From Clostridia bacterium (GTDB taxonomy: Bacteria > Bacillota > Clostridia > TANB77 > CAG-508): a stretch of 64,000 bases of DNA. The notes beneath the pieces are model-generated. The model ran no database searches. It saw only the letters and a list, made by a program, of their open reading frames with translations, and had not been told where the DNA came from. The position numbers and the translations under genes are program-made. Of the stretch, positions 145 to 49,297 are shown piece after piece (position 1 is the first letter of the stretch; every line of letters starts with the position of its first letter). The DNA lies in contig JAGAED010000017.1 in the NCBI GenBank assembly GCA_017613275.1, forward strand, positions 69,300 to 133,299. Direction: 5' to 3'.

Positions 145-262
145 AATATGTAAAAATGGGAGTGAGTACGCGTAGGCGTAGCGCAGTGGAACGGTGAAGC
201 AACCTGTCCTAATTAAAATAAGGAAGGTTGCGACAACAAGGACAAGCGGGTTTTTACATATT
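145..262 (+). repeat. Structured intergenic repeat, A/B family, copy A1
   Basis: Terminal inverted repeat aatatgtaaaa / ttttacatatt. Internal boxes agtgagtRcg, gaagcaacc and ggttgcgacaacaagg are shared with 33763-33877 (same orientation) and, inverted, with 35784-35978 and 44390-44582. Confidence 0.75.
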
Positions 263-4580: not shown

Positions 4581-4590
4581 TTGATAAGTT

Positions 4591-4630
4591 TCAACCTTGC
4601 TTTTTGGGACACCCCAAAAAACAAGGTTGA
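4591..4630 (+). terminator. Intrinsic terminator built from the GGGACAC-apex palindromic element
   Basis: tcaaccttgcttttt-gggacacccc-aaaaaacaaggttga. Confidence 0.7.
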
Positions 4631-4704
4631 AATTGCCCCAAATGTAATTGAAATTTTTTAGCTTTTAGTATATAATTTTGTTAAATGTTAGGAGATATTT
4701 TTTA

Positions 4705-12360: not shown

Positions 12361-12375
12361 AAACTTTTGATTTTT

Positions 12376-12408
12376 CCATGTTTTTTGGGGTACCCCCAAA
12401 AAACATGG
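12376..12408 (+). terminator. Palindromic terminator, variant of the GGGACAC element
   Basis: ccatgtttttt-ggggtaccccc-aaaaaacatgg. Confidence 0.65.
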
Positions 12409-12475
12409 TTTTCAATTATTTTTCAATGTTAATGTTTTATAATTACCTTAACAAAACCAAAAGGAGGTAATTAAA

Positions 12476-13558: not shown

Positions 13559-13566
13559 ATCATATT

Positions 13567-13604
13567 AAACCTGGTTTTCTGGGACACTCCAAAAAACCAG
13601 GTTT
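13567..13604 (+). terminator. GGGACAC-apex palindromic terminator
   Basis: aaacctggttttct-gggacactcc-aaaaaaccaggttt. An inverted copy of the core (ggagtgtcccc) lies at 13627-13637. Confidence 0.7.
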
Positions 13605-13727
13605 TTGTTTTGAAGCAAACTTTCTTGGAGTGTCCCCTAAAATCTCCTTATAGATGTAAAAAAGAACATAAATTTGTGAAAAATATTGAAATTATTATGC
13701 CAATATGATATAAATAAAAATAAATAG

Positions 13728-33736: not shown

Positions 33737-33762
33737 TTTTATGTGCAATCATAAATAAAAGC

Positions 33763-33877
33763 AATATGTAAAATGTGAGTGAGTCCGCGTAGGCGTAGCG
33801 AAGCGGAGCGGTGAAGCAACCTGTCCTAATAAAAAAAGGGAGGTTGCGACAACAAGGATGAACGGGTTTTACATATT
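33763..33877 (+). repeat. Structured intergenic repeat, A/B family, copy A2
   Basis: Near-identical to 145-262, including the terminal inverted repeat aatatgtaaaa/ttttacatatt. Confidence 0.75.
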
Positions 33878-33907
33878 GCGATATTAAAATAATTGGAGGA
33901 AATAAAA

Positions 33908-35764: not shown

Positions 35765-35783
35765 AAACAAAAAATTGCTAATT

Positions 35784-35978
35784 GGTAAAATATATTATTT
35801 TTAACCCTTGTCGTCGCAACCTTCAATCTTAAAATTACCACAAACTGCCAATTTCTAATAGCTCGTCGCTCGCTATAAGAAATTGTATGTTTGTGCTAAT
35901 TCTGCTGAGGGTTGCTCCAGTTCGCACTCACTTCGTTCGTTTGACGCTTTCGCGGGTTTTAAAATAATATATTTTACC
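35784..35978 (-). repeat. Structured intergenic repeat, A/B family, copy B1 (inverted relative to A copies, with a ~85-nt extra central hairpin)
   Basis: cccttgtcgtcgcaacc ... gggttgctccagttcgcactcac. Outer IR ggtaaaatatattattttt/aaaataatatattttacc. About 95% identical to 44390-44582. Confidence 0.75.
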
Positions 35979-35996
35979 ATAGCATATGAAAGATAA

Positions 35997-36024
35997 AAGG
36001 ATATCATTTTGAAATGATATCCTT
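35997..36024. terminator. Bidirectional hairpin terminator
   Basis: aaggatatcattt-tg-aaatgatatcctt, a perfect 13-bp stem. Confidence 0.7.
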
Positions 36025-44320: not shown

Positions 44321-44389
44321 TTTTTTTATTTTAAAAATCAAATTAAAATTAAATCTTTAAAAAATTCCTATAAAAAATATATATAATCA

Positions 44390-44582
44390 TCATAATATTA
44401 ATATTTTTTGCCCTTGTCGTCGCAACCTTCAATCTTAAAATTACCACAAACTGACAATTTCTAATAGCTCGTCGCTCACTATAAGAAATTGTATGTTTGT
44501 ACTAATTCTGCTGAGGGTTGCTCCAGTTCGCACTCACTACGTTCGTTTGGCGCTTTCGCGGGCTTCAAAATATTATATTATG
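44390..44582 (-). repeat. Structured intergenic repeat, A/B family, copy B2
   Basis: Near-identical to 35784-35978, lying ~70 nt downstream of tRNA-Trp. Confidence 0.75.
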
Positions 44583-44656
44583 ATTTAATATATAATTTAT
44601 TTGAAATATAAAAAGGAGCTGATATTATAAAACAATTTAGAATATTAATAATAACT

Positions 44657-49159: not shown

Positions 49160-49202
49160 CAAAAACAAAAAGAGAATTTGCAAAAGCAAATTCTCTTTTT
49201 TT

Positions 49203-49241
49203 AAACCTTGTTTTTTGGGACACTCCGCAAAAACAAGGTTT
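49203..49241 (+). terminator. GGGACAC-apex palindromic terminator
   Basis: aaaccttgtttttt-gggacactccg-caaaaacaaggttt, almost the same element as 4591-4630. Confidence 0.7.
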
Positions 49242-49297
49242 TATAAATTATAGTATATTTTTAAAAAAATTGTGAAAAATATATTTAGGTGATATTT

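Follow-up and report, generated by a model that had tools for sequence, protein, structure and literature searches.

In a stretch of 64,000 nt from a Clostridia bacterium (contig JAGAED010000017.1), referred to as the window throughout, four copies of a GC-rich intergenic repeat lie close to metK (SAM synthetase), to the genes for an MMPL transporter and an xxxLxxG heptad-repeat protein, and to the gene for tRNA-Trp(CCA). An initial annotation, based on the sequence alone, had placed four copies there, and reading all four sites confirmed their positions. Among the neighbors it had named, metK, the MMPL gene and the tRNA gene stood, and only “yhgE” had to be renamed, i.e. it is the gene of the heptad-repeat protein. 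The copies, their parts, and one fused remnant are the following.

143-264, + strand: copy A1, a member of the A subfamily that lies between metK and the gene of a TRAM/U5-methyltransferase; model R2 scores it at 118.5 bits
145-157 and 250-262, + strand: arms of A1
199-231, + strand: helix gcaacc..ggttgc of A1
232-241, + strand: conserved box gacaacaagg of A1
33761-33879, + strand: copy A2, likewise of the A subfamily, in the spacer that separates the MMPL gene from the xxxLxxG-repeat (“yhgE”-like) gene; E 2e-6 with the B/D model, 145 bits with model R2
35783-35979, - strand (core read on the minus strand): copy B1 (long-B subfamily); 95 bits
35783-35808 and 35954-35979: arms of B1
35816-35821 and 35910-35915: strands of the shared helix in B1
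35826-35907, - strand: extra hairpin of B1 (~85 nt), found only in long-B copies and placed within the apical loop of the GCAACC/GGTTGC helix that A also has
35945-35954 (on the + strand): GNRA-type hairpin cgcgaaagcg of B1
44389-44584, - strand: copy B2 (long-B subfamily), ~70 nt downstream of the tRNA-Trp(CCA) gene and upstream of an M23 peptidase gene; 84 bits
50033-50165, + strand: remnant of an A-type left arm (caatatgtaaaaag), joined to a “C” family copy, between ctsR-like and mcsA-like genes

The sequence relationships described at the outset were largely reproduced. For A1 and A2, an identity of ~85-90% had been estimated, and the alignment of 145 nt gave 84.8% and that of the central 72 nt 89%; for B1 and B2, the estimate of ~95% compares with 94% for 181 aligned nt and 89.8% once the arms are included (205 nt). 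The inverted ends aatatgtaaaa/ttttacatatt of the A copies and their hairpin gcaacctgtcct..aggaaggttgc (199-231) are present, as are, in the B copies, the stem-loop cgcgaaagcg and the extra hairpin, the latter being an insertion within a helix common to A. The boxes said to be shared by A and B in opposite orientation were recovered in a repeat search, which paired positions 205-245 of A1 inversely with 44408-44448 of B2 and also with B1. A conserved open reading frame had been denied, and the longest frames indeed comprise 11-48 codons and differ in frame and strand between copies. A covariance model built from short-B and D copies alone matched the A copies with E values of 2e-6 to 3e-4, and a model of the A copies matched B/D copies at ~1e-6. 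Because the model of each type finds the other, and always on the predicted strand, A and B are homologous.

All types share an overall plan, in which AT-rich inverted arms of 15-27 bp with a complementarity of 96-99% enclose an asymmetric GC-rich core. The core consists of several modules, i.e. a GNRA-type hairpin GCG[A/T]AAGC in the B/D types, a GCGAAGC-type mini-hairpin with a covarying stem, and a helix GCAAC..GTTGC that is closed by an invariant GA/GA internal loop and followed by the box GACRMCAAGG (GAC[A/G][A/C]CAAGG). The apical loop of this helix tolerates insertions of 15 to 85 nt, with 15-45 nt in the short-B and D copies, and the tetraloop changes from GAAA to GUAA between subfamilies. 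The core can fold into a junction of small helices on either strand, and folding as DNA is more stable than that of shuffled sequence for both strands (z -3.0 to -5.3). The GC content is 37-45% for the elements and 44-52% for the cores, compared with 29.9% for the window and ~25.6% for intergenic DNA.

The family is considerably larger than the four copies that had been noticed. The genome (1.155 Mb in 17 contigs, 29-30% GC, 95% complete) was searched with blastn and nhmmer, and at least 23 full copies were found, i.e. 10 A, 4 long-B, 3 short-B (which lack the 85-nt inner hairpin), and 6 of an additional subfamily D (GCGTAAGCG..GCGAAGCGCAGGGCGACTGGAGCAA). About six further copies are truncated or internally deleted. 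The copies have lengths of 115-200 bp and are dispersed over 10 contigs; together with their occurrence in many genomes, this speaks against the concern that they might be only local duplications. Identities among the copies of this genome range from 76 to 95%, and we regard them as mostly old and mostly fossil.

We then estimated the distribution of the family in other genomes. With the B/D model, 10 of the 25 genomes examined for this genus gave matches (0-17 per genome), and the 16 genomes taken from other genera of the order gave none. A scan with the core pattern, using one genome per species, retrieved at least 119 stretches, nearly all of them in metagenome-assembled genomes (MAGs) of uncultured gut Clostridia, Clostridium sp. 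CAG:440 among them, whose sources are the rabbit, the goat rumen, and the mouse and human gut. High-scoring A copies are confined to the genome of the window, and thus the A subfamily represents a lineage-specific expansion. A blastn search of phage and plasmid collections gave no match; one IMG/VR contig fits the core pattern, but the stretch lies within an open frame at the edge of the locus. The family is restricted to uncultured low-GC gut Clostridia of one genus-level lineage and appears to be undescribed.

Orthologous spacers were found in filled, empty, and altered states. The spacer between groES and groEL comprises 21-36 nt in six relatives, compared with 172 nt in the genome of the window, where it contains a short-B copy. 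In other sister species, the same spacer harbors unrelated palindromic repeats (L016, L019, L029). Metagenome relatives of the locus with B1 and A2 were fetched via the xxxLxxG-repeat protein, and neither of the two close ones has an insertion at the B1 site. The A2 spacer is occupied by a B/D hybrid of reversed orientation in a relative with 83% identity and a 5′-truncated remnant in a relative with 72% identity, and it is empty in a relative with 56% identity. As a separate observation, the groES-groEL spacer is a recurrent landing site for palindromic repeats, and that of the related genome G022 carries three tandem copies of GGTCAATTGGAACTCGTTCCTGAATGACC.

The copies typically fill short spacers between housekeeping genes, with a median distance of ~10 nt from the stop codon, and they end near the next ribosome-binding site. 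Occupied spacers include groES-groEL, queA-tgt, that of two ackA paralogues, and an acpP/fabI-like pair. Copies that are located within operons, e.g. between groES and groEL, would be co-transcribed, and a long hairpin would be present in the mRNA irrespective of their orientation; such an effect on the host would be secondary. In the genome of the window, about 12 copies have the same orientation as their co-directional neighbors and 11 the opposite one (all 29 listed copies were considered, fragments included). The 119 public loci show a bias: where the flanking genes are co-directional, the B/D-type core runs against them at 44 loci and with them at 18 (p = 0.0013); another 31 loci are in convergent or divergent spacers. 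A purely neutral element that flips freely would not show such a bias. The complete MAG chromosome G041, for which tRNA strands served as a compass for the replichores, has just two copies. No protein-coding gene recurs beside the element, the largest cluster of neighbors comprising 5 of the 119 public loci. A consensus scan found no terminator inside the elements, and promoter-like matches in them are at the chance level of shuffled sequence; one such outward match (TTGACG-N16/18-AATAAT/TAATAT) is located in B1.

To characterize the pairing of arms and core, 51 distinct copies of the genus were aligned. In 97.1% of the cells the predicted partners are paired, compared with 70.5% for shuffled copies and 31-51% when the partners were slid along the sequence, and 28 of 36 pairs have changes on both sides. 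For 106 further copies, the values were 96.1% and 71.0% (shuffled), respectively. The alignments had been fitted to the model and hence lean its way, but the effect is far larger than this bias, and when the outer 11 positions were compared without gaps, 1111 of 1166 matched. All four Watson-Crick pair types occur at positions of the arms. In the 106 copies, G-T is no more common than A-C, with 7 versus 12 cases in the outer arm and 10 versus 9 in the inner arm. An excess of G-T on the top strand (11 versus 0) had been seen in a first alignment of 52 copies, and was dropped because the larger set failed to reproduce it.

Correction of quasipalindromes by template switching is an established process (PMC7202029), and compensatory changes have also been described for the hairpins of REPINs (PMC3116915). 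Strict Watson-Crick symmetry of both strands without wobble, as read from these alignments, is what maintenance of a palindrome at the level of DNA would predict. Across the gut genomes from rabbit, goat, mouse, and human, conservation is far stronger in the core than in the arms, which suggests that the core itself is constrained; a MITE model gives no account of this conservation.

Target duplications were searched for at the canonical ends of 153 copies. Direct repeats with 8/8 matches were found for five copies (expected 0.25), 7/8 matches for eight (expected 3.1), and 6/8 matches for 29 (expected 18.6). Examples are TTTAAACT, TTTAAAAT, and TTCATTAT; copy A3, outside of the window, has the 9-bp sequence TTAAATTAG on both flanks. 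In the genome of the window, A3 is the only 1 of 23 copies that has a target duplication and the other 22 lack a clear one, a loss that is in agreement with identities of only 76-95% between the copies. The staggered cut of 8 bp suggested by these duplications would point to a transposase of the DDE type that acts in trans.

Several candidates for the mobilizing enzyme were considered. The profile Y1_Tnp (PF01797) has no match in the genome of the window. Over the 25 genomes of the genus, the presence of Y1 does not follow that of the element, and G008 has elements without Y1. Single-copy Y1_Tnp-like frames of 255-290 aa with weak similarity to PF01797 (E 1e-10 to 1e-17) were seen in most of the genomes G001-G024 (e.g. 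L035, L036); these genes could be RAYT-like and serve other repeat families. IS66 was considered because many arms start with GTAA and the duplications have a length of 8 bp, and was rejected, as it is absent from the genome of the window and a fragment in the related genome G042 has unrelated ends. Comparison of the genome of the window with itself, aimed at multi-copy insertion sequences, yielded only paralogous genes for surface proteins. An autonomous parent with matching ends was not found among the neighbors of the copies, the end matches in G042, or the Y1 and IS66 families; in G042, end matches without a partner lie beside ordinary genes. The tips vary between sublineages and are conserved within some of them, e.g. 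TTGATAATATATTGTTTT in G016, G008, and G042. They are thus not conserved family-wide, which would be unusual if a transposase reads them.

Two relatives proved to be informative about the relation of core, arms, and surrounding DNA. In G024, the cores are nearly identical, and the outer 8-19 nt of the arms are wholly different between copies, yet complementary. The palindrome extends at least 45 nt further, into a 34-nt repeat family (TTGACACATTTTGTG..). G042 (1.3 Mb, reached via locus L179) contains ~58 copies of the element with conserved ends TT[G/A]ATAATATATTGTTTT. Here the element resides in the middle of an outer composite MITE of ~215 bp with the ends GTTACAATTCACAG (L230-L249), for which perfect 8-bp duplications were found in 4 of 15 copies and 7/8 matches in another three of the 15; one inner copy has its own TTTAAAAT duplication. 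Judged against the outer flanks, which are asymmetric, 7 of 20 copies have the inner module inverted; the core therefore flips between its arms. Insertion into the loops of terminators had been considered as a general rule because some copies have GC-rich palindromic extensions. It was discarded, as the copies of the window's genome have no such extension and those in G024 and G042 belong to other repeat families.

Further repeats were observed along with the element. For the 34-nt unit of G024 (TGTGTCAYTGGTTCCGGGTTTGRTTGACACATTT), the motif search gave 75 hits, which form tandem arrays and inverted pairs (L087-L095; C2:36700-36782); the unit flanks every B/D-type element of that genome and is absent from the genome of the window. 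In two places, truncated A or D copies adjoin a second fold-back family, “C”. It has the core ACAAGGC[A/G]AACGAGCGAG..GTACnnnGGTAC..TTTAACACAG, inverted arms of its own, and ~10 copies in the genome. A junction of an A remnant with “C” of the same type as that in the window is present at C1:72046-72251, and another “C” site is C11:65731-65935. Hairpins of ~42 nt with a conserved loop TGGGACAC(C/T)CC and covarying stems (AAACCTTGTTTTTT/AAAAAACAAGGTTT) are located at gene ends in the window (4590-4631, 12371-12412, 13565-13606, and 49201-49242), and a similar one follows the orthologous xxxLxxG-repeat gene of the metagenome relative L215. Next to B1, between the convergent xxxLxxG-repeat and pilin-like genes, positions 35997-36024 form a perfect, bidirectional terminator-like hairpin with a stem of 12 bp (AAGGATATCATTT..AAATGATATCCTT). 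A gene for a pilin-like surface protein contains nine tandem copies of a 69-nt unit (20910-21761), which are 67-78% identical to a reference copy.

The initial annotation had left it open whether the repeats are MITE-like or a structured RNA. The former part held up, as the repeats are multi-copy, patchy within the genus, present in spacers that are filled in some genomes and empty in others, partly truncated and nested, and flanked in a minority of cases by 8-bp target duplications. The latter part did not, given the lack of an Rfam match, the occurrence in both orientations, the copies inside operons, the lack of a consistent promoter or terminator, and the restriction of covariation to Watson-Crick pairs. 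We therefore regard it as probable that the repeats are non-autonomous, non-coding fold-back transposable elements of the MITE type rather than stand-alone RNA genes. They would insert into AT-rich intergenic DNA via a staggered cut of ~8 bp made by a transposase in trans, as suggested by the target duplications, and the enzyme is apparently not encoded in the genome of the window. After insertion, the target duplications would decay. The arms would diverge between copies and retain their complementarity, for which template switching during replication of quasipalindromes is the simplest explanation. The core can invert between the arms, as seen in G042, and copies become truncated, internally deleted, nested with other palindromic repeats, or replaced by other members of the family.

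Three other explanations were weighed against a MITE-type element. Structured non-coding RNA genes or cis-regulatory RNAs, in which selection at the RNA level preserves the helices, the GNRA loop, and the junction nucleotides, would agree with the strong covariation in all helices, the swap of GAAA and GUAA tetraloops between subfamilies, and the invariant GA/GA loop and unpaired junction sequences that are conserved across hosts. However, at gathering thresholds Rfam (release 15) matched only tRNA-Trp in the window, and permissive searches with the elements (E up to 10) yielded only unrelated miRNA and sRNA models at chance level (best E 0.23-10). RNA genes would also be difficult to reconcile with placement in both orientations relative to the neighbors and inside operons, a patchy presence in the genus with some orthologous sites empty, truncated and internally deleted copies, the inverted core in 7 of 20 copies of one genome, arms without an excess of G-U over A-C, and elements that have no terminator and have promoter-like matches only at the level of shuffled sequence. 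We consider this explanation to be most unlikely. Host roles have been reported for Correia, REP, and ERIC elements, and the hairpins, in DNA or mRNA, could likewise have been exapted by the host, e.g. as processing or stability sites (RNase III), as attenuators, as outward promoters, or for protein binding, which would be compatible with a mobile origin. The tight fit between stop codons and the next ribosome-binding sites, including groES-groEL, queA-tgt, and acpP-fabI-like spacers, the 44:18 bias in orientation, and the outward promoter-like match in B1 are in line with such a role. Nevertheless, the same spacers are empty or occupied by unrelated palindromes in sister species, and the promoter matches are at chance level. 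Exaptation seems very unlikely as the explanation.

Mini-hairpins of the GNA and GNRA type (GCGAAGC, GCGAAAGC) and tandem G-A pairs are classic motifs of stable single-stranded DNA. The core of the element contains both, and the repeats could thus be REPIN-like, i.e. be moved as folded single-stranded DNA by an HUH tyrosine enzyme (Y1, RAYT/IS200-type) that recognizes and cleaves the core. The compensatory evolution of the arms resembles that of REPINs (PMC3116915), the 44:18 bias resembles that expected for lagging-strand-specific elements, and many genomes of the genus carry a single-copy Y1-like gene (255-290 aa). On the other hand, a Y1_Tnp match is missing from the genome of the window, which holds the most copies, the presence of Y1 is not tied to that of the element in the 25 genomes, and no REP-like array was seen flanking a RAYT gene. 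Furthermore, transposition by Y1 enzymes does not generate target duplications, yet 8-bp duplications are significantly enriched, and we judge a REPIN-like mechanism to be unlikely. It is doubtful, although worth considering, that the conserved core is a true cis-acting module that is read by some enzyme as folded single-stranded DNA (or RNA). If this were true, the family would represent a class of structure-guided mobile DNA, in which the arms vary and are re-templated and the core flips, and interchangeable cores would ride on generic AT-rich fold-back carriers. In a weaker variant, the cores would be chromosomal single-strand signals, e.g. sites of priming or processing; some copies contain the motif TAGCGA, which we take to be that of the plasmid ssoA origin.

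The MITE-type reading places the family next to several known systems. Examples of bacterial MITEs are Correia/NEMIS in Neisseria, RUP in Streptococcus pneumoniae, and bcr1 in the Bacillus cereus group. Bacterial MITEs (reviewed in PMC10969869 and PMC3184786) share with the present family a length of 100-200 bp, the lack of coding capacity, multiple copies, inverted ends, intergenic and operon-internal locations, target duplications, the probable need for a transposase in trans, and a patchy distribution between related genomes. In contrast to Correia/NEMIS, which have conserved inverted ends of 26 bp and a TA duplication, the duplication here is ~8 bp and the ends are unrelated and variable. 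The family differs from bacterial MITEs also in that the tips vary, an asymmetric GC-rich core is conserved and flips, and the elements are nested in other palindromic repeats. REP units comprise 20-40 nt, have a conserved 5′ tetranucleotide, form inverted doublets, and do not generate target duplications. Like the REP/REPIN-RAYT systems (PMC3116915, PMC2817692), the family consists of palindromic intergenic repeats with frequent compensatory changes and small GC-rich hairpin modules; unlike them, it is present without RAYT/Y1 in the genome of the window, has target duplications, is larger, has a single asymmetric core instead of a REP doublet, and reaches tens rather than hundreds of copies. 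Template switching at quasipalindromes, studied by the Lovett laboratory (PMC7202029), copies a change in one arm of an imperfect inverted repeat to the other, which would yield “compensatory” changes without selection. It is a mutational process and not a family of elements, and its action here is suggested by the pattern of changes.

The family occupies ~3% of the intergenic DNA of a very compact genome, and ~58 sites in one relative. It interrupts classic operons (e.g. groES-groEL), whose transcripts would thereby gain long hairpins. Because all of its helices “covary”, covariation screens will probably misidentify the family as novel structured RNAs. Covariation without G-U, when combined with folding on both strands, flipping, and target duplications, points to maintenance of palindromes at the DNA level and not to a function as RNA.
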